14,469 nucleotides of DNA from a virus (lineage: Duplodnaviria; Heunggongvirae; Uroviricota; Caudoviricetes), in IMG/VR virus record IMGVR_UViG_2740892028_000014. One strand, 5' to 3'. The position numbers were made by a program, and so were the translations under genes. Below, one piece after another: positions 3,990 through 14,469 of this stretch. The notes under the pieces are model-generated. The model was not told where the DNA came from, did no database searches, and saw only the letters and a list, made by a program, of their open reading frames with translations. Each line of letters begins with the position of its first letter. The stretch's first letter is position 1.

Positions 3990-6341
3990 ATGCGAAACAT
4001 TGATCTTATCCGTCAGGTTATCAGTGCGTCTGAAAACAACTGGCCTCATGTGCTGGGCTGCCTGAACATAAATGTCCCTGACTCTCCGCGCCGTCATGCT
4101 CCCTGCCCTGCATGTGGGGGCAAAGATCGATTCCGGTTCGACGACAACGGGCGCGGTAGCTTCATCTGTAATCAGTGCGGCGCTGGTGATGGGCTGGATT
4201 TAATTAAACGCGTAAATAACTGCGACACAACAGAGGCGGCGCTGCTTGCCGCTGATGTTCTGGGTATTGATTACCGGACAACGGAAACACCAGAAGCCAC
4301 CAGCCAGAAACGGGAACAACTGGAAACCGAGCGCCAGCGACGCGAACAGGAGCGCCTGAAAAGGGCAGAGAAGGACGAACAACAAAGACGGGATACGTTT
4401 TCCCGTCAGTTTGATGACATGCGCAGAAAGGCTGTAAACGGCAAATCTGATTATCTGGTTGCGAAAGGGGTAGGTGATTTTACATTCCCCGTGTTGCCCG
4501 ATGGATCTCTGTTGCTGGCGCTGGTGGATAAATCCGGCGCAGTCACAGCAGCACAGACTATTACCTCACATGGTGAAAAAAGACTCCTGACAGGTTCGGC
4601 AAAGCAGGGGGCATATCACGCCATAAACGCACAGAAACGACCTCACAGCATCATAATTGCTGAGGGGGTGGCTACCGCCCTGTCGTGCCATTTAATTCGC
4701 CCTGACGCAATGACAGTGGCAGCAATCGACGCTGGCAACCTGTTGCCAGTAGCGGAAGTCATGTGCAGAACATATCCACAGGCACAAATCATCATTGCCG
4801 CAGATAACGATCACCAGCAAGGAAACTCCGAAAGTGGAGGGATCAACACGGGGAAAGATGCCGCAGAGAGGGCCGCTATTTCCGTAGCTGGCTGGGTGTC
4901 TCTGCCACCGACTGACTATAAAGCCGACTGGAACGACTATCACCAACAACACGGGCTGGCGGCAGCCACAGCAGCATTTAAAGATTCGATGTACCAGCCA
5001 CGGGGGAAAGGGGCGCAGGTGAAAAATCACAAACAGCCAGTCGGGGCGCTGAATGAGATCAGTTCTGGCGAGGTGTTAAGCGATGATGAAATTGCTGTCC
5101 TCGAAGAAATCAACCGGACGTTTACGCATGTCACCATTGGCGGGAAACACAAGGTGGTGTCGCTAAAGCCTTCTCAAACCGGCGGTGTATCGCACGTTTT
5201 CGAGGATTTATCACAATTTCAGCATTATTTTCATCATAAACCGAGAGTCGCCAGAAAGCTGGCGGGATCGGCGTGGCTGTCATGGAGTGGGAAGAACTAC
5301 AAGCCAGGAGGCGTAGGATTTTATCCAGTACCAGACAAATGCCCTGACGATGTTTTTAATCTGTATGAGGGGCTGGCACTGGAACCAATTGAAGGAGATT
5401 GCACGGTATACCTTAATCACCTGTTGCAGGTTGTCTGTGCCGGTAATGAAGAGGCATACCAATATCTTATCCAGTGGATGGCGCACATTATCCAAAAGCC
5501 TGATGAAAAACCGTCCGTGGCAATCGTGATGAAATCTGTCCCGGGCACAGGGAAAGGCACAACGGTTAAACCGCTGCTGCAAATACTGGGGCAGTACGCC
5601 GCCCACATTAACGGGGCGGGACATATTTCAGGGCGCTTCAATTCAATACTTGCTAACAAGCTACTGGTATTTGCTGACGAAGTGACGATCCACAAGCCGT
5701 CTGAAGCTGACAGACTTAAAGCGATTATTAGCGAACCGACGTTTAACCTTGAGCGCAAGGGAATTGATGCTGAACCAATGCCGAATTTTGCCCGGTTGAT
5801 ATTTGCCAGTAACAGCACACAGGTATTACAGGCAGGGATAAGAGAGCGCCGCTATCTCGTGCTTGAGCCATCTCCTGAAAAAGCACAGAGCCGGGAGTAT
5901 TTTGATCGGCTGTACAGTTGGCTTAATGATGGCGGTGCCGCAAAGTTGCTTTGGCATCTTAAAGGGGTGGATCTCTCAGGTTTTGACCCTCAACGAGCGC
6001 CACAGACCGATGCCTTACGTGAAGAAATCTTGCTGGGGCTGTCTGGCGTTGAATTGTTTCTTTATGGCGAGCTAATCAATGAACCTCCGTTTAATGGCGA
6101 AGTCCGTTTGTTTGCAAAGGATATGGTTAGTCGATTTGTAGCGTGGTCGCTTGAGCGTGGGGAAAAGCTTAAAGAGCCAGCAGCCAGATCACTACTGGGT
6201 AAATCACTTGCACAAATGGGGCTGGTGAAGCATGGAAGACCAGACCGAGGGAATGGCGTGTTCTACGAACTACCAGAGGTCGGAGTTCTACAGGCTGCGT
6301 TTGCCCGTCTGATCGGTATGGGGGGTTATGATGTTTTTTAA
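3990..6341 (+). CDS. DNA primase-helicase, P4 alpha / D5-like: zinc ribbon + Toprim primase + P-loop NTPase
   Basis: ORF track 3990..6341, 783 aa. Zinc-ribbon motif CPACGGKDRFRF...FICNQCG near the N-terminus. Toprim-like acidic motifs IIIAEGVATA and IIIAADNDHQQ. Walker A VMKSVPGTGKGT and Walker B LLVFADEV in the C-terminal half. ACGGGGG upstream of the ATG. Confidence 0.9.
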   Translation: MRNIDLIRQVISASENNWPHVLGCLNINVPDSPRRHAPCPACGGKDRFRFDDNGRGSFICNQCGAGDGLDLIKRVNNCDTTEAALLAADVLGIDYRTTETPEATSQKREQLETERQRREQERLKRAEKDEQQRRDTFSRQFDDMRRKAVNGKSDYLVAKGVGDFTFPVLPDGSLLLALVDKSGAVTAAQTITSHGEKRLLTGSAKQGAYHAINAQKRPHSIIIAEGVATALSCHLIRPDAMTVAAIDAGNLLPVAEVMCRTYPQAQIIIAADNDHQQGNSESGGINTGKDAAERAAISVAGWVSLPPTDYKADWNDYHQQHGLAAATAAFKDSMYQPRGKGAQVKNHKQPVGALNEISSGEVLSDDEIAVLEEINRTFTHVTIGGKHKVVSLKPSQTGGVSHVFEDLSQFQHYFHHKPRVARKLAGSAWLSWSGKNYKPGGVGFYPVPDKCPDDVFNLYEGLALEPIEGDCTVYLNHLLQVVCAGNEEAYQYLIQWMAHIIQKPDEKPSVAIVMKSVPGTGKGTTVKPLLQILGQYAAHINGAGHISGRFNSILANKLLVFADEVTIHKPSEADRLKAIISEPTFNLERKGIDAEPMPNFARLIFASNSTQVLQAGIRERRYLVLEPSPEKAQSREYFDRLYSWLNDGGAAKLLWHLKGVDLSGFDPQRAPQTDALREEILLGLSGVELFLYGELINEPPFNGEVRLFAKDMVSRFVAWSLERGEKLKEPAARSLLGKSLAQMGLVKHGRPDRGNGVFYELPEVGVLQAAFARLIGMGGYDVF

Positions 6342-6370
6342 TATAGTCTTTTTACAAGAAGATCGTTTTT

Positions 6371-6476
6371 ACCTGTACCACCTATACCACTTTGCTAATT
6401 CAGTATTAAAAACAGTGCGTTATAGTGGTACAGGTCAATATCTTACCTATACCAGACCTGTACCACCTATACCATT
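6371..6476. repeat. iteron array I (putative replication origin): ACCTGTACCACCTATACCA units, both orientations
   Basis: Near-identical 19-20 bp units at 6371-6390 and 6457-6475, inverted copy TGGTACAGGTC at 6426-6436, AT-rich spacer between. Lies just downstream of the primase gene. Confidence 0.6.
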
Positions 6477-7480: not shown

Positions 7481-7585
7481 TGGTACAGGTCTGTACAGGT
7501 GGGGAGAGGTCATTTTTACCCACCTGTACCACCTGCAGGCCTCGCCACACAAGGGTTTGTGACATGGTGGTACAGGTGGTACAGC
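7481..7585. repeat. iteron array II: GGTACAGGT/ACCTGTACC units related to array I
   Basis: GGTACAGGT at 7482-7490, CTGTACAGGTGG at 7491-7502, inverted CACCTGTACCACCTG at 7521-7535, GGTGGTACAGGTGGTACAG at 7567-7584. Same core as 6371-6476. Confidence 0.6.
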
Positions 7586-8078: not shown

Positions 8079-8252
8079 ATGGCTATTTCAGTAAAGCCAG
8101 TATTGATAAGTGAGAAGCAAATGGAAGCGATAAAGAAAATTCAGGAGGAGCAGCGTAAAAAATCAGAGGTAGGAGTTGCGCCAACGATCCACGAAATTGC
8201 TCGGGGATTAATGGATAAGGCGCTGGCTTACACTTTAACTGGACGTGGGTAA
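8079..8252 (+). CDS. small protein, 57 aa, possible ribbon-helix-helix-like regulator
   Basis: Below the track length cut-off; read directly: ATG at 8079, AAGGGGG 5-11 nt upstream, stop TAA 8250-8252. Protein MAISVKPVLISEKQMEAIKKIQEEQRKKSEVGVAPTIHEIARGLMDKALAYTLTGRG has a strand-helix-helix layout. Fold call is inference. Confidence 0.5.
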   Translation: MAISVKPVLISEKQMEAIKKIQEEQRKKSEVGVAPTIHEIARGLMDKALAYTLTGRG

Positions 8253-8256
8253 ATCA

Positions 8257-9600
8257 ATGGCTACGTGGCAACAGGGTATTAATTCTGGTGGTTTTCTGGC
8301 TGGCATCGGTACGCAAAATGAGAATGCGCCAAAGGCAAGCGACATTAACGCAACGCTTGGTCTGATCCGCGAAAACAATGAACTGGCTCGATCAGGTGCA
8401 AATAACGTTGCTCTGACAGGTCTTCGAGGTCTGGCTGGAGTTGCTGATATTTATAAGCAGCAGCAACAGCAGGAGCGTAAAGCGGCATTCCAGAAAGGCT
8501 ATGCGGATGCTTATGCGTCCGGCGACAGAGAGAAGATGCGTAATCTGGTTACTGAATTTCCTGATGAGTTTGAGGAAGTCAGAAAGGGAATGGGGTATAT
8601 CGATGATGCCCAGAGGGATGATTTTGGCAATCTGGCGCTTAAAGCACAGGTGGCCTCATCGCTGGGCGCTGGCGCATTTGGTCGATTCATGATGGACAAT
8701 GAGAAGGAAATGCGCCGCCTTGGCGTTCCGCCAGAAGTCATCGCTGACATGCATTTTAACGACCCGCAGGGCTTCCAGCACTTTGCAGGTAATCTGGCAC
8801 TATTTTCTCTCGGTCATGAGAAGTACTTCGATATCAAAGATCGAATGGAAGGTCGTCGACTTGAGCAAGGGCGACTGGATGAAAGTATGCGTCAGGCTGA
8901 CATGGAGAACGCGAGAGGATGGGCAAATATCCAGAACGCTCAACTAGACAGGGCTCAGCGAGCACAAATTCACTCAGATGAGATGGGATTGAAGCTAATG
9001 GAGCTGGGGCAAAAAGGTAAGCCGTCAGCAGACTTAATTAAGGGATTAAATTCTGATATTACCAATTTTGGCAAAAATTATAACTCTGTCAGAGCGGCAG
9101 CAAACTCTCTGCAAGCCCTTAGCAAGGTAAATACTGGCGCTGCCCAACTTGGGATTATCTTCAACTACATGAAATCTCTTGACCCGCAGTCAGTCGTTCG
9201 TGAAGGCGAACAGGTTCAGGTAATGCGGTCTGATGGCATATGGGGACAAATCAAAGGATACATAGACCAGCTTAATGCTGGAAACGGCCTGTCGCAGGAG
9301 GCAAAGGATAACATTGTTAACGCCGCAAAAATCAACGCCAATGCTATGGGGCAGCAGTTTAACCAGCAGGTTGACGAATATCTCGATACATATGGAGAAA
9401 CCATTCCTCAGGGGCTAAGAAAAAGCCTTGAAAGAAGGAAAGCGAAGCTATTTGACGATGTTTCCGGGCAGCCTACATCACAGGCTGGCACTGGGCAGGC
9501 AAAAGCGGCAACCGGAGGAATATCAGAAGGCGCAACGGCAACCAACCCTAAAACTGGTCAGAAAATTATTTACAGGAACGGAAAATGGCAGCAAATGTAA
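8257..9600 (+). CDS. hypothetical Ala/Gln/Gly-rich protein, about 447 aa; no enzymatic motif seen
   Basis: ORF track 8245..9600 uses a GTG; the first ATG is at 8257 (MATWQQ...). The upstream small-gene stop overlaps this start region. Poly-Q run and predicted helical, low-complexity sequence. Last 16 nt overlap the next gene. Confidence 0.7.
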   Translation: MATWQQGINSGGFLAGIGTQNENAPKASDINATLGLIRENNELARSGANNVALTGLRGLAGVADIYKQQQQQERKAAFQKGYADAYASGDREKMRNLVTEFPDEFEEVRKGMGYIDDAQRDDFGNLALKAQVASSLGAGAFGRFMMDNEKEMRRLGVPPEVIADMHFNDPQGFQHFAGNLALFSLGHEKYFDIKDRMEGRRLEQGRLDESMRQADMENARGWANIQNAQLDRAQRAQIHSDEMGLKLMELGQKGKPSADLIKGLNSDITNFGKNYNSVRAAANSLQALSKVNTGAAQLGIIFNYMKSLDPQSVVREGEQVQVMRSDGIWGQIKGYIDQLNAGNGLSQEAKDNIVNAAKINANAMGQQFNQQVDEYLDTYGETIPQGLRKSLERRKAKLFDDVSGQPTSQAGTGQAKAATGGISEGATATNPKTGQKIIYRNGKWQQM

Positions 9601-11702
9601 TCTTACCGGAAGGTTTTGTGCTCGATGAACAACCTGATAACTCACAGTTTCCTGATAGTTCACAGCTTCCTGATGGTTTTGTGCTTGATGCCCAACCAGA
9701 ACAGCAGCAATCACCTTTGGTTTCACCATGGGAAAATTCCAGACAGGAAAATGTTGTTAATAATGCTAACGGTTTCGACCGTTTTATGTATGGCGTTCTC
9801 AGTGGATTGATGGATGTTGGTAAAGGTGTTGGCCTGTTTCAGGATATGACACCAGAAGAGCAAGCCGCAATTCAGTCTCTACAGCAGAAGTTAGCGGCAA
9901 AACCATCAACCGCACAAGATGTTGGTGAGTTTGTTGGACAAGCAGCGCCATTTGTTAGTGGTGGTGGGATTATTTCTCAGGTTCCGAAAGGTGCGGCAAG
10001 GCTGGCTGCCGCCGCAGGGCTTGGTGCTGGAGAAGGGGCTATTGTAGCCAATGGAACAAATAGCGATGTTGCTTCCGGCGCTGCTATTGGCGCTGTGGCT
10101 GGCCCTGTAGCCGAACTTGCTGGCCCTGCAATTAATAAAATAGCTGGGAAATTAACCAAGAAGAATGTTTCTTCGATTCCAGATATTGAGGGGATTACTC
10201 CTGCCGAAGAGAAAATTCGTAAGTTATCTGCACAAGGCAACCCAAATCTTGCCTCTTCGCTTGAAGGGCTAGATCTAAAACCTCAGAAAGAAATTGTTGA
10301 GGCTGCAAATAGGCTTCATGTTGATTCAGTTCTTCCTTCTCATTTTTCAGGAAATGAGCAATACCAAGCTGTAGAGCAAGCCCTAAAGTCACGGACAGGA
10401 TCAGCGTTAAAAGCTCAAGAAGATAAAGCAATAAGCGAATTAGCCTCTAGTGCTGGCAAGATAATCGATGATGTTGCTGGTGCGCCAGATGCGTTAGCTA
10501 TGAGCGAAAAATATATTTATCAGATAAATAGTAGAATGGAAGCACTAAAAAACCGTAGTGATCAGTTATATAAACGTGTTGATTCCGCTCTATCACCAAG
10601 AACAAAAGTCGAAGCAAATAACACAAGCACTATGCTGGAAAAAATCGCTGATGATTTAGGTGGGTGGGATAATCTTGACCCAATAGAAAAGCGAGTTTTT
10701 ACAGCAATAAACCCCGGCCCAGATAGCATCCTAACGTATGCAAATTTAAACAGGCAAAGGCGTTTAGTTGGTGATGCCCTAAATAAAAAGCAGGGGCCAT
10801 ACAAAGATGCTGATAAAGAAGCGCTATCAAGACTATATGGAGCTTTAGCTGAAGACCAAAAATCTGTCTTATCCAATACTGGATACTTGCGAGATTTCGA
10901 AGTCGCACAACGCCTTGTAGCTATGAGAAAAAACTTAGAAAGGCAAATGGTAAATCTTCGCGGGAAAACACTTAATGGGGATATAGCGTATAAAGTAACG
11001 AATTCTCTTCAATCTATGGCAAAAGGTGATGCGAGAGGGTTTCGTGAGATTATGCAAAATACTCCATCAAGAACATTGCGAAGGGAGCTAGTAGGAACAG
11101 CATTAAGAGATATGCTTTCCTCTGGGAAGCGCGGGGCCGACTTTAATCCATCTGGCTTTGCAGATTGGTGGCAAAACTTGCAACACAGTGGACAGCTAAA
11201 GACTTTGGCTGAACATTTGCCAAAAGAAACAATGAGCGGACTATATGATGTATACAAAGTTGCCAGAGCAATAAAAAATGCTAAAGCGCATGAAATATCT
11301 ACTGGTAAGCTGAATGAGTTTGTAAACAGATTTAATCGGGTAACAGCTCCATACGAACTAGCAGCAAAACACATTCAAAAAATAGGCACGATGATAGGCG
11401 CTCATTTTGGATCGCTTGGAGCCATTGCTGGGGCTGATATTGGAGCAAGATTGGCGAGTAAAGCTCGATTAGCTGGTGGAGCAGGGGCGGCTGATGCTGC
11501 GGATAAATTAATTGCCTCGCCAGCCTTCCAGAGCGCAGTAAAAAATCTACACGGAAAAGCGCCTGGGCACATTGTTGATTCACGTATCAGGCGCTCCCCT
11601 CAATGGAAGAGTTTTTTTAACTCTCTTCCTGAACAGGAAAAACGGACCATCGCCCGACTGGGCATCATTACTTGGCTATCTAATGATCCAGATAATGACT
11701 AG
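9585..11702 (+). CDS. hypothetical 705-aa protein with N-terminal tandem repeat and Gly/Ala-rich zipper-like segments
   Basis: ORF track 9585..11702. Tandem peptide repeat LPEGFVLDEQP / LPDGFVLDAQP, mirrored in the DNA at about 9600-9700. Gly/Ala stretches such as GAARLAAAAGLGAGEGAIV and GSLGAIAGADIGARLA. No Walker or nuclease motifs seen. Confidence 0.75.
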   Translation: MAANVILPEGFVLDEQPDNSQFPDSSQLPDGFVLDAQPEQQQSPLVSPWENSRQENVVNNANGFDRFMYGVLSGLMDVGKGVGLFQDMTPEEQAAIQSLQQKLAAKPSTAQDVGEFVGQAAPFVSGGGIISQVPKGAARLAAAAGLGAGEGAIVANGTNSDVASGAAIGAVAGPVAELAGPAINKIAGKLTKKNVSSIPDIEGITPAEEKIRKLSAQGNPNLASSLEGLDLKPQKEIVEAANRLHVDSVLPSHFSGNEQYQAVEQALKSRTGSALKAQEDKAISELASSAGKIIDDVAGAPDALAMSEKYIYQINSRMEALKNRSDQLYKRVDSALSPRTKVEANNTSTMLEKIADDLGGWDNLDPIEKRVFTAINPGPDSILTYANLNRQRRLVGDALNKKQGPYKDADKEALSRLYGALAEDQKSVLSNTGYLRDFEVAQRLVAMRKNLERQMVNLRGKTLNGDIAYKVTNSLQSMAKGDARGFREIMQNTPSRTLRRELVGTALRDMLSSGKRGADFNPSGFADWWQNLQHSGQLKTLAEHLPKETMSGLYDVYKVARAIKNAKAHEISTGKLNEFVNRFNRVTAPYELAAKHIQKIGTMIGAHFGSLGAIAGADIGARLASKARLAGGAGAADAADKLIASPAFQSAVKNLHGKAPGHIVDSRIRRSPQWKSFFNSLPEQEKRTIARLGIITWLSNDPDND

Positions 11703-11705
11703 TGA

Positions 11706-11721
11706 ATGGCCACGGATGGCC
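11706..11721. terminator. short GC hairpin between convergent genes (weak terminator candidate)
   Basis: ATGGCC ACGG ATGGCC: the self-complementary GGCC arms can pair; T-rich tract follows on the + strand. Sits exactly between the stops of 9585..11702 and 11722..12078. Stem is only 4 bp. Confidence 0.25.
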
Positions 11722-12078
11722 TCAATCTTTATTCTTTGAAATAGAGTCATTGATCTTTTCGAAACACCAATGAAATCCACAAAAGAGAGCTACACCAATA
11801 TAACAATACAAAACTATCAACCACCTTTCAGTGTCCGAAGGGTAAAAAACATCAATTACATAAGCAACACCAATTGGTATTAATGCTAGTAATAACATCG
11901 ACATAGGACGTACAAACTTCTGAACTATATCAATTTTATAGAACCACAAGGCGGTATGTTTAATGATATAAGTAAAGATGGCTGCGCCAATAATGGCAAA
12001 AAACACCATCGATAAGGTCGGGTATAACTTTGCGACAATTAAACCCAACAAAATAATTATAACTGCCTGCCCCCTCAC
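11722..12078 (-). CDS. small integral membrane protein, 118 aa, about 3 predicted TM helices
   Basis: ORF track 11722..12078 (-). GTG start with AAGGGGG 5 nt upstream on the minus strand. Hydrophobic segments IIILLGLIVAKL, VFFAIIGAAIFTYII, LLLALIPIGVAYVI. AT-rich codon usage. Confidence 0.55.
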   Translation of the reverse strand: MRGQAVIIILLGLIVAKLYPTLSMVFFAIIGAAIFTYIIKHTALWFYKIDIVQKFVRPMSMLLLALIPIGVAYVIDVFYPSDTERWLIVLYCYIGVALFCGFHWCFEKINDSISKNKD

Positions 12079-12191
12079 ACCAACCCCCTTTAGCGTTGTT
12101 TAGAATGGCAATCATCATATATCCAAGACATGGCATTTGGTACATAGCTTGGGTCGGGATTTCAAATCCGATCCCCGTTGATGGGGCCGTT

Positions 12192-12573
12192 ACAGTACGC
12201 GCATATCCGCTTTATGTGAAACAGGAAGATTTTTCTGATATCACTGCCACAGCAAAACACCAATTTCGTGACCAGTACGCGCGCGAGGGGTATCAGTTGC
12301 AAAATTTTTTGCAACTGCGTCCGACCAGTACGCGCACGATGGAGGGGAGTGCCATAAAACTGTTCTCTACATAAGACAGAGTGGTGGTGATGTGTTGATT
12401 ATCGGCGTATATGCGCACAGGACGCGCTATGACGATGTTTTATGCGGGTACACCAATCACATGTATCTGATGTGATAAATCGTGTTACATGACATATCAT
12501 GTTGTGCTGGTGGTTATCACGACTTTCTGAATCTGGCCTTTGCCTGATATTTTGCGACAAGTACGCGCGCGTA
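12192..12573. repeat. family of short repeats with an alternating CG core (consensus roughly ACCAGTACGCGCGCG)
   Basis: Copies at 12192-12203, 12271-12287, 12324-12339 and 12557-12573, with a fifth at 14232-14247. Longer shared context CAATTTC..GA.CA.TACGCGCGCG at 12261-12287 and 14219-14246. Confidence 0.5.
12294..12317. promoter_or_regulatory. 24-bp palindrome CAGTTGCAAAA-TT-TTTTGCAACTG
   Basis: Perfect 11-bp inverted arms with a 2-bp spacer, between two copies of the CG-core repeat. Confidence 0.4.
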
Positions 12574-12599
12574 GCATCGACAGCATACACATTGGATAT

Positions 12600-12821
12600 T
12601 CATTTTGTGACCAATGCGATAAGTAGCGGGATAAGAATTGATAAAATCAACAGGCCGATGATCCACTTTTGATTTTCACTGGCCTTATCTCTATTTTCAT
12701 CAATCTTATCAATAATTCGACGCTCCAAGCCGTGCATATCACCGCGAATGGCAATCATCTCATTGCGAACATCCGAGAAGTGGTTGGCTTGATGTTCAAT
12801 GTGTGGCGTTCTGCCTTTCAT
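12600..12821 (-). CDS. small membrane protein, 73 aa: soluble N-terminal helix plus single C-terminal TM (XhlA/holin-like architecture)
   Basis: ORF track 12600..12821 (-). ATG start with GTGAGGA upstream on the minus strand. C-terminal WIIGLLILSILIPLLIALVTK is a clear TM segment. Family resemblance recalled, not searched. Confidence 0.55.
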   Translation of the reverse strand: MKGRTPHIEHQANHFSDVRNEMIAIRGDMHGLERRIIDKIDENRDKASENQKWIIGLLILSILIPLLIALVTK

Positions 12822-12900
12822 GCCTGATCCTCACCTATCGTCACCACCTGCTGGTGTATAAAGGTATTGGCCCAAGCAGCTTTCCAATGGGCACTCATGT

Positions 12901-13356
12901 TTATACGCTGACCTTACAATCAATCACCGCTTTTAACTTTTCAGCATTGCTTCCCTGGCGCTTCCACGCGCTGTAAATGTCTTTATCCCATGCTTTACCA
13001 GCTTTTGTTTGATAGCCTGCTTCATTGAGCCGTTCCGCTATCACACGCCCATTATCAAATCCCTGTCGGATGGTATCGGCAATGATCTTTATAACTGCCG
13101 TTTCGTTATATGGCTTTGGTGGGATGTTCGGCTTTCCGGCAATAAGCGACGCAGCGGCTTTTTCCATGCGCTCCACCAGCCCAAGCATTCGTGAATCAAT
13201 AGACTTTTCCGGCTGTCCCAGCTTCATGCGAATCGCATCAACAAGCCAGGAGGTTTTATCCCCTCCAGAAGCGAGAACAGACCGATTAAACTCATCCTGC
13301 AATTCAGATGGGATGCGGAACGCGACCAGATTAGATTTGCTCATTGCAAAGACCAT
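12901..13356 (-). CDS. DNA-binding protein, 151 aa: N-terminal ribbon-helix-helix-like segment plus C-terminal recombinase-type HTH-like segment
   Basis: ORF track 12901..13356 (-). N-terminus SKSNLVAFRIPSELQDEFNRSVLASGGDKTSWLVDAIRMKLG looks RHH-like. C-terminus IAERLNEAGYQTKAGKAWDKDIYSAWKRQ resembles the DNA-binding segment of serine-recombinase accessory domains. Both are motif-level calls. Confidence 0.55.
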   Translation of the reverse strand: MVFAMSKSNLVAFRIPSELQDEFNRSVLASGGDKTSWLVDAIRMKLGQPEKSIDSRMLGLVERMEKAAASLIAGKPNIPPKPYNETAVIKIIADTIRQGFDNGRVIAERLNEAGYQTKAGKAWDKDIYSAWKRQGSNAEKLKAVIDCKVSV

Positions 13357-13374
13357 ATCAGTGAGTAATATCCA

Positions 13375-13404
13375 TACAGTATACCACTGTATAACACTGT
13401 TATA
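13375..13404. promoter_or_regulatory. overlapping operator-like inverted repeats: TACAGT-N5-ACTGTA and TATAAC-N3-GTTATA
   Basis: Read directly at 13375-13391 and 13390-13404, about 20-50 bp upstream of the 12901..13356 start on the minus strand. Confidence 0.35.
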
Positions 13405-13458
13405 CGCTCAAATATCAGCCAGAAAATAACGGGCCAATCACAAAGCTATCGCTGTGTT

Positions 13459-13579
13459 GTTGGTTCAGAGCTGGGCTGTGTTGGTTCAAAATGAGTTGAT
13501 GTTGGTTCAATATTTCAGAAAAAACACAATAAAAACAACGATCTTTACAAATTGAACCAACTGAACCAACTGAACCAAC
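13459..13579. repeat. iteron array: three GTTGGTTCA copies phased 21 bp apart plus a perfect tandem triple of the inverse TGAACCAAC
   Basis: GTTGGTTCA at 13459-13467, 13480-13488, 13501-13509. TGAACCAAC x3 contiguous at 13553-13579. Lies in the divergent region between 12901..13356 (-) and 13616..13903 (+). Confidence 0.65.
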
Positions 13580-13615
13580 ACCTTTTTGCTTATCTATATA
13601 ATCTGAGAGGCAGAA

Positions 13616-13903
13616 ATGATAAGGGACAGGAAAGCTGAAGAGCTGGAGTCAAAAGGGCTATACCGGAGAGCTGCCGCACGATGGGCAGAAGTCATGATGC
13701 TGGCAGATGGCGATAAAGAACGTGAACATGCAGCAAACAGACGCTCTGAATGTATCCGTAAGGCGGCACGCCCACCAGCAACTACAGACAGATTCGGAGA
13801 TTTAAGACAGGCAGTTAAGCGGACTCATTCGGCTCTTGGTATGGATGAGGAAGCGAGAGGGTACTTCAGGCGTTATCGCGATAAAGATTGCCAGAGACAG
13901 TAA
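13616..13903 (+). CDS. PerC-family transcriptional regulator-like protein, 95 aa
   Basis: ORF track 13616..13903. N-terminus AEELESKGLYRRAAARWAEVM matches the PerC-type signature as I recall it. TATAAT at 13597-13602 just upstream; GAGAGG before the ATG. Confidence 0.65.
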   Translation: MIRDRKAEELESKGLYRRAAARWAEVMMLADGDKEREHAANRRSECIRKAARPPATTDRFGDLRQAVKRTHSALGMDEEARGYFRRYRDKDCQRQ

Positions 13904-14019
13904 TGCTCTCTCTGTTTTGGCAAATTACCCCTCACTTTGAAGGGATCGGAGCTATAAAAATGGTTTTAGGTACATTCCTCAAATTGAGGATTGTGGGAAA
14001 ACCAATGAGTTAGGCTTTT

Positions 14020-14037
14020 CCCCCAATGGGGGTTTTC
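14020..14037 (+). terminator. rho-independent terminator-like hairpin CCCCC-AAT-GGGGG + TTTT
   Basis: GC stem followed by a T-run about 120 bp downstream of the 13616..13903 stop. An alternative pairing with upstream GGGAAAA is possible. Confidence 0.4.
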
Positions 14038-14148
14038 GAAAGAATCAATGGGTTAGTCCATCGTGCAAATTTGCACCCTGCCAGCCAACGCAATTTCTCG
14101 TTGGCGAAAATATCAGGTATTTACTGAACGAACGGTCTACCAGTCTGT

Positions 14149-14469
14149 TCAGTTACCAGTTGCATATGGCTGTTTCATGTGAGAACGGAGGTTTTTTCGG
14201 ACATCACTATTGGGTACAGCAATTTCACGAGCAATACGCGCGCGCAGGACAACAAGCCTGAACATGGTTACACACCTCGATCGTGAGGGATGTAGGCAAT
14301 GGCTTCTGACCAAAGCACCCGAAAAAACCGTGTACATAAGGGTGTACATAATCAAAAATCGCATTAGGAAGAAACCAGCTACAATGCGGCATTGAAGCCA
14401 ATACTCTACAAACAGATTCAAAGCGACATATCTCCGTAGGCCGTTGTTAATTACAGCGGCGCTACGCAT
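14149..14469 (-). CDS. hypothetical protein, 106 aa, hydrophobic core; gene status doubtful
   Basis: ORF track 14149..14469 (-). Its ATG is the last three bases of the window, just as the window begins on the alpA ATG, so it may be annotated in the source. Sequence is Arg/Cys-rich and looks atypical. Confidence 0.3.
   Translation of the reverse strand: MRSAAVINNGLRRYVALNLFVEYWLQCRIVAGFFLMRFLIMYTLMYTVFSGALVRSHCLHPSRSRCVTMFRLVVLRARIAREIAVPNSDVRKNLRSHMKQPYATGN

Follow-up and report, generated by a model that had tools for sequence, protein, structure and literature searches.

The window analysed here is the whole 14,469-nt stretch of the IMG/VR virus record IMGVR_UViG_2740892028_000014 (Caudoviricetes), and the segment under study, positions 12600 to 13903, holds two open reading frames (ORFs) read leftward, a cluster of short repeats, and one gene read rightward. 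The leftward pair consists of a gene for a putative DNA-binding regulator of 147 amino acids (aa) followed by a gene for a 73-aa protein with a C-terminal transmembrane (TM) segment, and the rightward gene encodes a PerC-like regulator (Table 1). The original prediction, drawn from the letters of the window, had taken the pair for a regulator-plus-membrane-effector unit that shares its control with the PerC-like gene and possibly has toxin-like or exclusion activity. Both co-directional minus-strand ORFs (12901-13356 and 12600-12821) are real and annotated in RefSeq, the larger one probably with a shorter product than the ORF allows, and the observation itself was thereby confirmed; the interpretation built on it is supported in part. 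On balance, we favour a reading in which the segment is the integrase-distal end of a phage-inducible chromosomal island (PICI) of Escherichia coli and combines three independent modules, namely a self-repressing regulator, the 73-aa gene as exchanged cargo, and an iteron module with the PerC gene.

The window is closely related to a locus of E. coli STEC383 (97.6% identity), in which an insert of ~17 kb is flanked by yicC and dinD and carries genes for an integrase, AlpA, an AntA/B antirepressor-family protein, Ash, an Icd-like protein, a primase-helicase, and a 'phage DNA ejection protein', with the regulator, 73-aa and PerC genes at its far end. As expected of a PICI, the insertion is site-specific and its ~17 kb fall within the usual 15-20 kb, int, alpA and primase share one orientation, and lysis and capsid genes are absent; homologues of ejection proteins are the sole virion-related genes in the island. 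For EcCIMP1, a PICI of E. coli MP1, excision and transduction together with its P22-like helper, phage Kapi1, have been demonstrated, and islands of the EcCIMP1 type have been reported to provide superinfection immunity against the P22-like helper through a mechanism that was left unexplained (Pick, Stadel and Raivio 2025, PMC11773190). EcCIMP1 shares with the window a 143-aa hypothetical protein (98.6% identity), the AntA/B protein (98.2%), and the N-terminal 351 aa of a modular primase (84.6%; window 3990-6341, EcCIMP1 locus L051 12422-15178), as well as a 57-aa protein (p57), a PerC-like gene (54%), and a distant gene-20-like ejection-protein gene (25%). A module of GTTGGTTCA repeats adjoins PerC in EcCIMP1 too, with flanks identical in sequence. 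EcCIMP1 differs from the window in its integrase and in its attachment site (tRNA-Thr versus yicC-dinD), and it lacks the 147-aa and 73-aa genes and the gene for a polytopic membrane protein that follows them in the window, carrying a second alpA-family gene in their place. The C-terminal halves of the two primases are unrelated, that of EcCIMP1 being of the DUF927 type, in agreement with its GTTGGTTCA repeats, and that of the window of the DUF5906 type, accompanied by ACCT[GA]TACCA iterons. Thus, from the gene make-up of the yicC-dinD insert and the genes common to EcCIMP1, the window is an EcCIMP1-like PICI and the segment under study is its integrase-distal end.

The window ORF for the regulator (12901-13356) comprises 151 codons and corresponds to a RefSeq hypothetical protein in the STEC383 locus. 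Because M5 is invariant and 18 of 20 aligned homologues begin at the residue corresponding to it (MSKSNLV...), with one other beginning four residues further upstream, the true product is most likely 147 aa long (12901-13344). At least 360 homologues were found, the best 120 of which showed 65-99% identity, and their hosts comprise ~20 genera of Enterobacterales, including Escherichia, Salmonella, Klebsiella, Enterobacter, Serratia, Pantoea, Erwinia, and Pectobacterium. A tblastn search of 50,697 phage records with the regulator returned no match. The genomic context was surveyed in 49 non-E. coli loci, fetched from one genome per species. Wherever island genes were found within 10 kb in this survey, the regulator gene was convergent with the primase/alpA/int block, which places it at the integrase-distal position, and dinD flanks the regulator on its far side in the Photorhabdus loci L019 and L022, an arrangement also seen in E. 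coli. Conserved at 65-79% identity, the regulator belongs to the core genes of this family of islands.

The view that this is a DNA-binding protein has gained support from several sides. The N-terminal sequence, SNLVAFRIP-SELQDEFNRSVLASGGDKTSWLVDAIRMKL, agrees with a pattern of strand, helix A, tight turn (GGD), and helix B in which the hydrophobic spacing is kept, and F13, R14, P16, G31, D33, and W37 are invariant in the alignment of 20 homologues. An AlphaFold2 model of the 151-aa protein based on the 20-sequence alignment was discarded owing to its predicted local distance difference test score (pLDDT) of 46.5. In a model based on 106 sequences, residues 1-12 were unstructured in the monomer and were followed by helices at 13-25 and 30-42, a long helix at 49-68, and a three-helix, helix-turn-helix (HTH)-like C-terminal domain (~75-140) with pLDDT >93, this domain being the usable part of the model; weak Pfam matches to HTH_62 and Recombinase are compatible with the modelled HTH. 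The regulator also matched phrog_30270 (E 2.7e-4), and hhalign placed it in register with Arc/Mnt (7-42 to 7-42), at a weak E of 0.014 and a probability of 3%. Foldseek searches of PDB and BFVD gave weak, non-significant matches to small VapB/CopG-type ribbon-helix-helix (RHH) proteins, none at E up to 0.001, and a PDB profile search with the regulator found nothing relevant. The sequence pattern, the model helices, and the weak profile and fold matches all point to a predicted Arc/Mnt-like RHH at the N-terminus. The C-terminal domain is nearly invariant and is retained where no partner gene follows. The 147-aa proteins would form an unnamed two-domain RHH family that is specific to satellites and absent from the phage genomes searched.

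Comparison of the regions upstream of the regulator gene revealed that the N-terminal strand and a site made of two 7-bp half-sites vary together. The sequence GTATAAC-N3-GTTATAC occupies the same place in 23 of 23 loci encoding the strand S-N-L-[VI]-A-F-R, whereas GTCTTAC-N3-GTCTTAC is found instead in 20 of 20 loci encoding S-[LI]-S-V-T-F-R; the partition covers 44 loci, including one divergent copy that has neither operator. Buttiauxella holds both classes, and the split is therefore not simply one of host genus. The residues that differ between the classes include alternate strand positions (L6 to S, A8 to T), which, judging from RHH proteins in general, would face the DNA. All loci keep an extended -10 element, TG-N-TAtAaT, shortly downstream of the operator (Providencia has TGATATAAT, Pantoea and Erwinia have TGATAAAAT). 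In the window it reads TGGTATACT, relative to which the operator spans about -18 to -34, that is, the spacer and the -35 region; the output of a promoter scan did not include this element. No second copy of the operator was found in the window at up to three mismatches or in the whole island at up to two, leaving no visible second target in the island, and searches of EcCIMP1 and P22-like segments also yielded no copy. As the strand type partitions with an operator over the gene's own promoter, the regulator most likely represses that promoter. Paired dimers of the 147-aa protein would bind the 17-bp site and repress the leftward transcript, holding it low and steady in the integrated state. 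The two strand/operator classes would then represent a natural specificity swap for an RHH repressor.

The regulator and the 73-aa gene are not a fixed pair. Among 5426 complete E. coli genomes, 361 carry the regulator, and at least 192 of these (at least 53%) lack the 73-aa gene. The latter does not follow the regulator in any of the 49 non-E. coli loci, in most of which the next convincing genes after the regulator are convergent with it. In many regulator-bearing genomes homology ends 11-15 codons ahead of the regulator stop. In two inspected islands lacking the 73-aa gene, AH25 and FMU073332, the interval from the ejection-protein genes to the regulator is occupied by a gene for an ImmA/IrrE peptidase with a hypothetical gene, and a gene for an Abi-family protein, respectively (L061 5100-5963, L062 4964-5941). 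ORFs at L004 10484-11482 and L049 10187-11149 are Abi-like as judged by their sequences. Separate occurrence and cargo replacement thus identify the regulator as the edge of an accessory hotspot rather than the partner of the 73-aa protein. Of the predicted regulator-plus-membrane-effector unit, the gene order stands, with no terminator-like site between the genes, and the notion of a dedicated pair does not. The regulator could serve as a practical anchor for mining satellite-borne anti-phage genes across Enterobacterales.

Table 1. Features at the integrase-distal end of the island (window coordinates).
Feature	Position	Strand	Remarks
Polytopic membrane protein gene, possible third leftward gene	11722..12078	-	118 aa from GTG; about four hydrophobic segments
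73-aa tail-anchored membrane protein gene, accessory cargo	12600..12821	-	ORF with TM segment; RefSeq hypothetical protein in STEC383
79-nt spacer, regulator to 73-aa gene	12822..12900	-	Shine-Dalgarno-like AGGTGAGGA; no terminator-like site
147-aa two-domain DNA-binding protein gene (predicted)	12901..13344	-	ORF reaches 13356; M5 is the conserved start
Extended -10 element TGGTATACT, leftward transcript	13378..13386	-	Read from sequence; consensus match only
17-bp palindromic operator GTATAAC-N3-GTTATAC, predicted site of the 147-aa protein	13389..13405		Strand/operator partition
Origin-like iteron module, six exact GTTGGTTCA copies	13459..13579		Repeats in direct and inverted arrays
PerC/ANR-like regulator gene, 95 aa	13616..13903	+	Transcribed away from the iterons; TATAAT at 13597-13602

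The 73-aa protein has, as predicted, one TM segment at its C-terminus. Its single hydrophobic stretch, KWIIGLLILSILIPLLIALVTK, lies at the extreme C-terminus (residues 50-73 in a Kyte-Doolittle window), the TM segment corresponds to about residues 53-71 (window 12609-12665), and the N-terminal part is charged and coiled-coil-like. Such a protein would be inserted in the inner membrane by its C-terminal anchor, with the coiled coil in the cytoplasm. A terminator scan of the minus strand from 13356 to 11656 found none, and the only terminator-like hairpin on that strand is at 11656-11643, just downstream of the polytopic gene; as no terminator-like site precedes this hairpin, the regulator and the 73-aa gene are probably co-transcribed. 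The 73-aa protein matched phrog_6324 (E 3.2e-11). Close homologues are few, all from E. coli where the source names the organism, and fall in protein clusters of 152 and 32 member sequences. An exhaustive search added ~20 distant relatives of 70-130 aa with the common C-terminal motif DENQKW-x3-L-x2-S-x-I-L-x-P-L-x-I-A-L-V-T-K, which also have a stretch resembling a coiled coil and, often, an N-extension rich in glycine, and tblastn against the phage collection gave only weak matches, to three Klebsiella phages. The gene region is present in 169 of the 5426 complete E. coli genomes, some of these being prophage copies, and the ORF was annotated at the match in 30 of 30 records sampled from the 169. 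The ratio of nonsynonymous to synonymous substitution rates (dN/dS) was 0.24-0.35 in four comparisons with small counts (6-27 substitutions per class), and island alleles differ in length only by one heptad, seven residues lost in frame. The gene appears to be under purifying selection and looks functional. A second island lineage (L064) keeps the regulator and the 73-aa gene (88% nucleotide identity) with a different third gene, the polytopic gene being replaced by one for an unrelated 132-aa signal-peptide (secreted) protein.

A 77-aa homologue with 83% identity to the 73-aa protein is located in P22-like prophages of E. coli. In these prophages gp7, gp20, and gp16 (or a 707-aa analogue) are met convergently by genes for a small membrane protein, the 77-aa protein, a 123-aa zinc-ribbon protein, and Mnt, with Arc, Ant, and the tailspike divergent from Mnt. 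The DNA of window 12602-12859 showed 80-81% identity to four such prophage loci (L057-L060), covering the 77-aa gene and 38 nt of leader (12822-12859), and identity to P22-like prophages was 90-93% over the gene-20-like gene and into the beginning of the gene-16 analogue (8247-8469, 8845-10126). As far as nucleotide comparison can tell, the 73-aa gene came from, or is common to, the mnt-to-gene-16 (sieA) segment of P22-like prophages. In P22 itself (NC_002371), the left arm of immI contains mnt, orf59a, a terminator, PsieA, and sieA, convergent with the ejection-protein genes 20 and 16, and SieA, the superinfection-exclusion protein that blocks injection of DNA by P22-like phages, is a polytopic inner-membrane protein with the conserved motif FxRYPxEAxxFNK (Leavitt et al. 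2024, PMC10883804). The polytopic gene of the window stands convergent to the gene-16 analogue, at the place that sieA takes in P22. Its product was considered as a SieA homologue and rejected, as there is no significant similarity and the motif is absent; nor did the 73-aa protein show homology to orf59a, and with one TM segment it is not a polytopic protein of the SieA type.

Several observations were made on the sequences around this cargo. The island segment 8245-11702 contains the P22 gene-20 homologue (Inj_translocase, E 3.5e-73) and a 705-aa gene-16 analogue and, unlike EcCIMP1, has no homologue of gp7 or DUF2824. The polytopic protein is 131 aa long in the sister locus L001, and its first 13 codons are in another frame in the window (ORF 11960-12145). 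The adjoining 520 bp (12079-12599) have no annotated gene; a plus-strand ORF of 92 aa (12096-12374) showed 86% identity over 65 aa to unannotated EcCIMP1 sequence, and a 17-nt motif, CGAC[CA]AGTACGCGC[AG]CG, occurs at 12322 and 12555; Serratia fonticola (L005) has a near-identical motif in the interval from the iterons to the regulator gene. A pair consisting of a gene for a 118-123-aa zinc-ribbon protein (CxxC...CxxC, phrog_4293) and then one for a tail-anchored protein (phrog_6324) recurs in three prophage settings (L058 5517-6234, L053 5652-6339, L052 4565-5216), with an 8-nt overlap in L053.

All six GTTGGTTCA copies lie within the region dividing the two divergent genes. Three direct copies start at 13459, 13480, and 13501 (21-bp spacing), followed by a 43-nt spacer (13510-13552) of 79% A+T and three inverted head-to-tail copies at 13553, 13562, and 13571. 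The same module is found right behind the primase stop in sibling islands and EcCIMP1 (L051 12276-12388), and EcCIMP1 has a second one that adjoins PerC with no regulator gene (L051 3736-3856). Regulator gene and iteron module are direct neighbours in the window, as they are in ~17 of the 49 loci fetched. More than 20 loci (Providencia, Morganella, Photorhabdus, Xenorhabdus) have the regulator with no GTTGGTTCA nearby, some of them with other iterons by the primase. The iteron type follows the C-terminal half of the primase in most loci: islands in which this half is at least 79% identical to the DUF927 type of EcCIMP1 mostly carry GTTGGTTCA, with L008 and L050 as exceptions, and the iterons of other islands read AGTGTGTCA, ACGGGATAA, or GTTGTCTCA. 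Nine copies of ACCT[GA]TACCA, direct and inverted, form two clusters in the window (6368-6474 and 7481-7584), the first beginning 27 nt past the primase stop and the second after a 245-aa gene; as a pair they are probably the origins proper to this island, separate from the GTTGGTTCA module. Since the resident primase has a DUF5906 C-terminal half and other iterons beside it, and the GTTGGTTCA module lies far from it, this module is not its cognate, and the best reading is that of an additional origin-like copy that does not match this primase. In Pantoea coffeiphila (L010 9721-11680) the iteron module, the promoter, and the regulator gene are tandemly duplicated with a period of 1251 bp. A role of the GTTGGTTCA repeats as the operators of the regulator was considered and rejected, given that module and gene occur independently and the strand covaries with the 17-bp site instead.

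The identification of the rightward gene as PerC-like was borne out, its product matching Pfam PF06069 over profile positions 1-89 of 90 (E 2.6e-33, 114.6 bits versus a cut-off of 22.6); NCBIfam ANR scored 26.1 bits, under its cut-off of 32. The corresponding EcCIMP1 protein, EcCIMP1_025, has been shown experimentally to repress LEE1 (PMC11773190). Common control of the regulator and PerC did not hold up. The single operator lies over the regulator's own promoter, ~190 bp from the PerC -10 element and with the iteron module between them, and the module adjoins PerC in EcCIMP1, where the regulator is absent, and adjoins the regulator in other genera where PerC is absent. PerC, repeats, and regulator are therefore separable, and PerC is a separate accessory regulator.

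Among the remaining small genes of the island, p57 (8079-8252) had matches in 22 of the 49 loci and is the most widely conserved after the regulator. Encoded where the variable region borders on the primase side, p57 resembles another short RHH protein in sequence. From PerC to the island end (13904-14469) no convincing gene was seen; a 106-aa minus-strand ORF that begins at the last base of the window had no family match, and the last 49 bases of the window cannot be aligned to the STEC383 locus. Megablast of 11700-14469 against the phage collection found no match, and an Rfam search of 11600-14469 gave one chance-level microRNA match across the iterons and nothing else.

Anatomy, distribution, strand/operator covariation, prophage DNA homology, and purifying selection, all obtained computationally, carry the three-module reading favoured above. 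Several points weigh against it. The RHH assignment is below every curated threshold, Pfam RHH models did not match the regulator at E up to 1, and all fold matches were non-significant. The strand/operator partition may stem from one ancestral switch between two clades rather than from many independent events. As the regulator is strongly conserved even where no co-directional gene follows it, it must act beyond autoregulation. The zinc-ribbon partner (phrog_4293), which precedes the tail-anchored gene in three of three prophage contexts, is absent in the window, and the 73-aa protein may not work alone. An exclusion role for this protein is assigned by position; it is no homologue of SieA or orf59a and has no PADLOC match, and EcCIMP1, the only relative with published superinfection immunity, carries neither the regulator nor the 73-aa gene.

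Other explanations were weighed for the 73-aa gene and its neighbour. The order of an RHH gene and then a small membrane-protein gene, across a 79-nt gap with no terminator-like site, would suit an antitoxin or dedicated repressor followed by a toxin or abortive-infection effector, as would autoregulation in the manner of type II antitoxins, the keeping of the pair in the second island lineage (L064), and the weak fold matches to VapB-type antitoxins. We consider such a regulator-plus-toxin pair very unlikely, however, because the pairing is not conserved, with convergent next genes in most of the 49 loci and no 73-aa gene in at least 192 of the 361 genomes; the prophage homologue follows another RHH protein, Mnt, and a zinc-ribbon protein; the regulator has its large, nearly invariant C-domain even where it has no partner; and no toxin or defence family was matched. 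Scans of Pfam, NCBIfam, and PADLOC gave no toxin family or toxin-antitoxin signature: the 73-aa protein had no Pfam match and in NCBIfam only SLATT_1 (14.5 bits versus a cut-off of 41), and the PADLOC screen gave only chance-level LeoB (E 0.05) and Cas11a (E 0.017), with no defence family. The toxin-like activity that had been proposed is accordingly disfavoured. The likeness to small lysis proteins fared somewhat differently. A coiled coil followed by a single C-terminal TM segment in a small protein is the architecture of XhlA of the PBSX lysis cassette (PF10779) and of PHROG 689, and there is weak profile similarity to both ('holin' phrog_689, E 0.0037 for the 73-aa protein and 3e-5 to 4e-5 for its relatives; Pfam XhlA, E 0.013-0.027 for relatives). 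All these matches are under curated thresholds (16.1 bits versus a cut-off of 34.7 for XhlA with the 77-aa homologue), the island has no annotated lysis genes, and no inspected copy lies beside an endolysin or in a lysis cassette. The copies instead occur in the accessory end of islands, the immI/mnt arm, a tail-region insert of a Klebsiella phage, or near an antirepressor, in Gram-negative prophages and satellites, and the prophage homologues are paired with a zinc-ribbon protein, not with a holin or endolysin. The architecture that had been noted is thus real, and a lysis accessory of the XhlA/holin type, working in lysis by the island or its helper, is improbable. Nor do we give much credence to the 73-aa gene as a functionless remnant that was carried in with the ejection-protein genes and stranded with no zinc-ribbon partner. 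The presence of that partner in all prophage contexts, the adjoining 520 bp with no annotated gene, and the frameshifted 5' end of the polytopic gene relative to the sister locus would fit decay, but the ORF is annotated in all 30 sampled records and belongs to protein clusters of some size, and the low dN/dS (at few sites), the in-frame heptad change, and the retained Shine-Dalgarno sequence speak for a maintained gene.

A different role was also weighed for the regulator. Omega and MetJ sites are head-to-tail short repeats, and CopG, ParG, and omega are RHH proteins that bind tandem repeats. A replication or partition regulator acting on the GTTGGTTCA iterons, which the C-terminal HTH would read, would agree with the adjacency of gene and module in the window and about a third of the surveyed loci, with the head-to-tail arrangement of three of the iterons as 9-mers, and with a C-domain that is as nearly invariant as the iteron. 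We regard this as unlikely, though somewhat less so than the alternatives for the 73-aa gene. The module adjoins PerC with no regulator in EcCIMP1, the regulator occurs in more than 20 loci that have no GTTGGTTCA close by, the module also stands directly behind the primase gene with a sequence that largely follows the primase C-half, and it is the 17-mer near the promoter, not the iterons, that changes together with the variable strand.

Within the three-module reading, our best guess for the 73-aa protein is an exclusion or interference role, by analogy with the prophage slot in which its homologue lies, the nature of the cargo in sibling islands, and the superinfection immunity of EcCIMP1-type islands; the protein would have a membrane function in the prophage state that interferes with incoming P22-like phages. 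The exclusion activity raised in the original prediction is in this sense reasonable, as a homologue stands behind mnt in the sieA slot, though it is deduced from position. As EcCIMP1 lacks the genes of the cassette, the cassette cannot explain the immunity of EcCIMP1; it may be a concrete candidate for superinfection immunity in the islands that carry it. In a bolder version, which we hold to be unlikely, the regulator, the 73-aa protein, and the polytopic protein would be a non-homologous satellite counterpart of P22 mnt-orf59a-sieA, that is, a new superinfection-exclusion module expressed when integrated, whose target at the inner membrane would be the conduit of gp20 and gp16 through which incoming P22-like phages deliver their DNA, with the island's own divergent alleles of gene 20 and the gene-16 analogue letting satellite-loaded particles escape. 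The homology search that had been suggested as a check largely gave the outcome named there as a refutation, a placement among ordinary prophage regulatory genes. Taken together, these observations suggest an ordinary satellite end, with an autoregulated repressor and a captured moron by an origin-like module, of some interest for a satellite-specific two-domain RHH family, a rebuilt left arm of the helper's immI, and a mismatched second iteron module.

Compared with Arc, Mnt, and CopG, the regulator has the same N-terminal strand-helix-turn-helix pattern and, at its own promoter, a predicted operator in which the two 7-bp half-sites have a spacing of 10 bp, with strand residues that co-vary with the half-site sequence. 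It differs in being ~2-3 times larger, with the additional nearly invariant three-helix HTH-like domain at its C-terminus, and in matching no curated RHH model.

The P4 ori and crr are bound by the alpha primase, and the ori iterons of Staphylococcus aureus pathogenicity islands (SaPI) flank an AT-rich region. No sequence match to the P4 alpha origin-binding domain in the PDB was found. Short direct and inverted iterons around an AT-rich spacer, one copy directly behind the primase/replicase gene with another at a distance of several kb, and an iteron sequence that largely tracks the C-terminal half of the replicase are features that the island family shares with the P4 and SaPI origins. The difference is that the distal GTTGGTTCA copy of the window is unlike the iterons beside the resident primase.

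The arrangement of the whole segment is closest to the P22 immI region, in that ejection-protein genes are followed, in convergent orientation, by a gene for a polytopic inner-membrane protein, a short ORF, and the gene for an RHH repressor, past which a divergent promoter region lies. The regulator and Mnt show no sequence homology beyond the RHH pattern, the iteron module and PerC stand opposite in place of arc and ant, and the host element is a satellite and not a phage. The satellite shares with the helper lineage the ejection-protein genes and a sieA-slot gene, nearly intact, and the same order has been rebuilt behind its own repressor.

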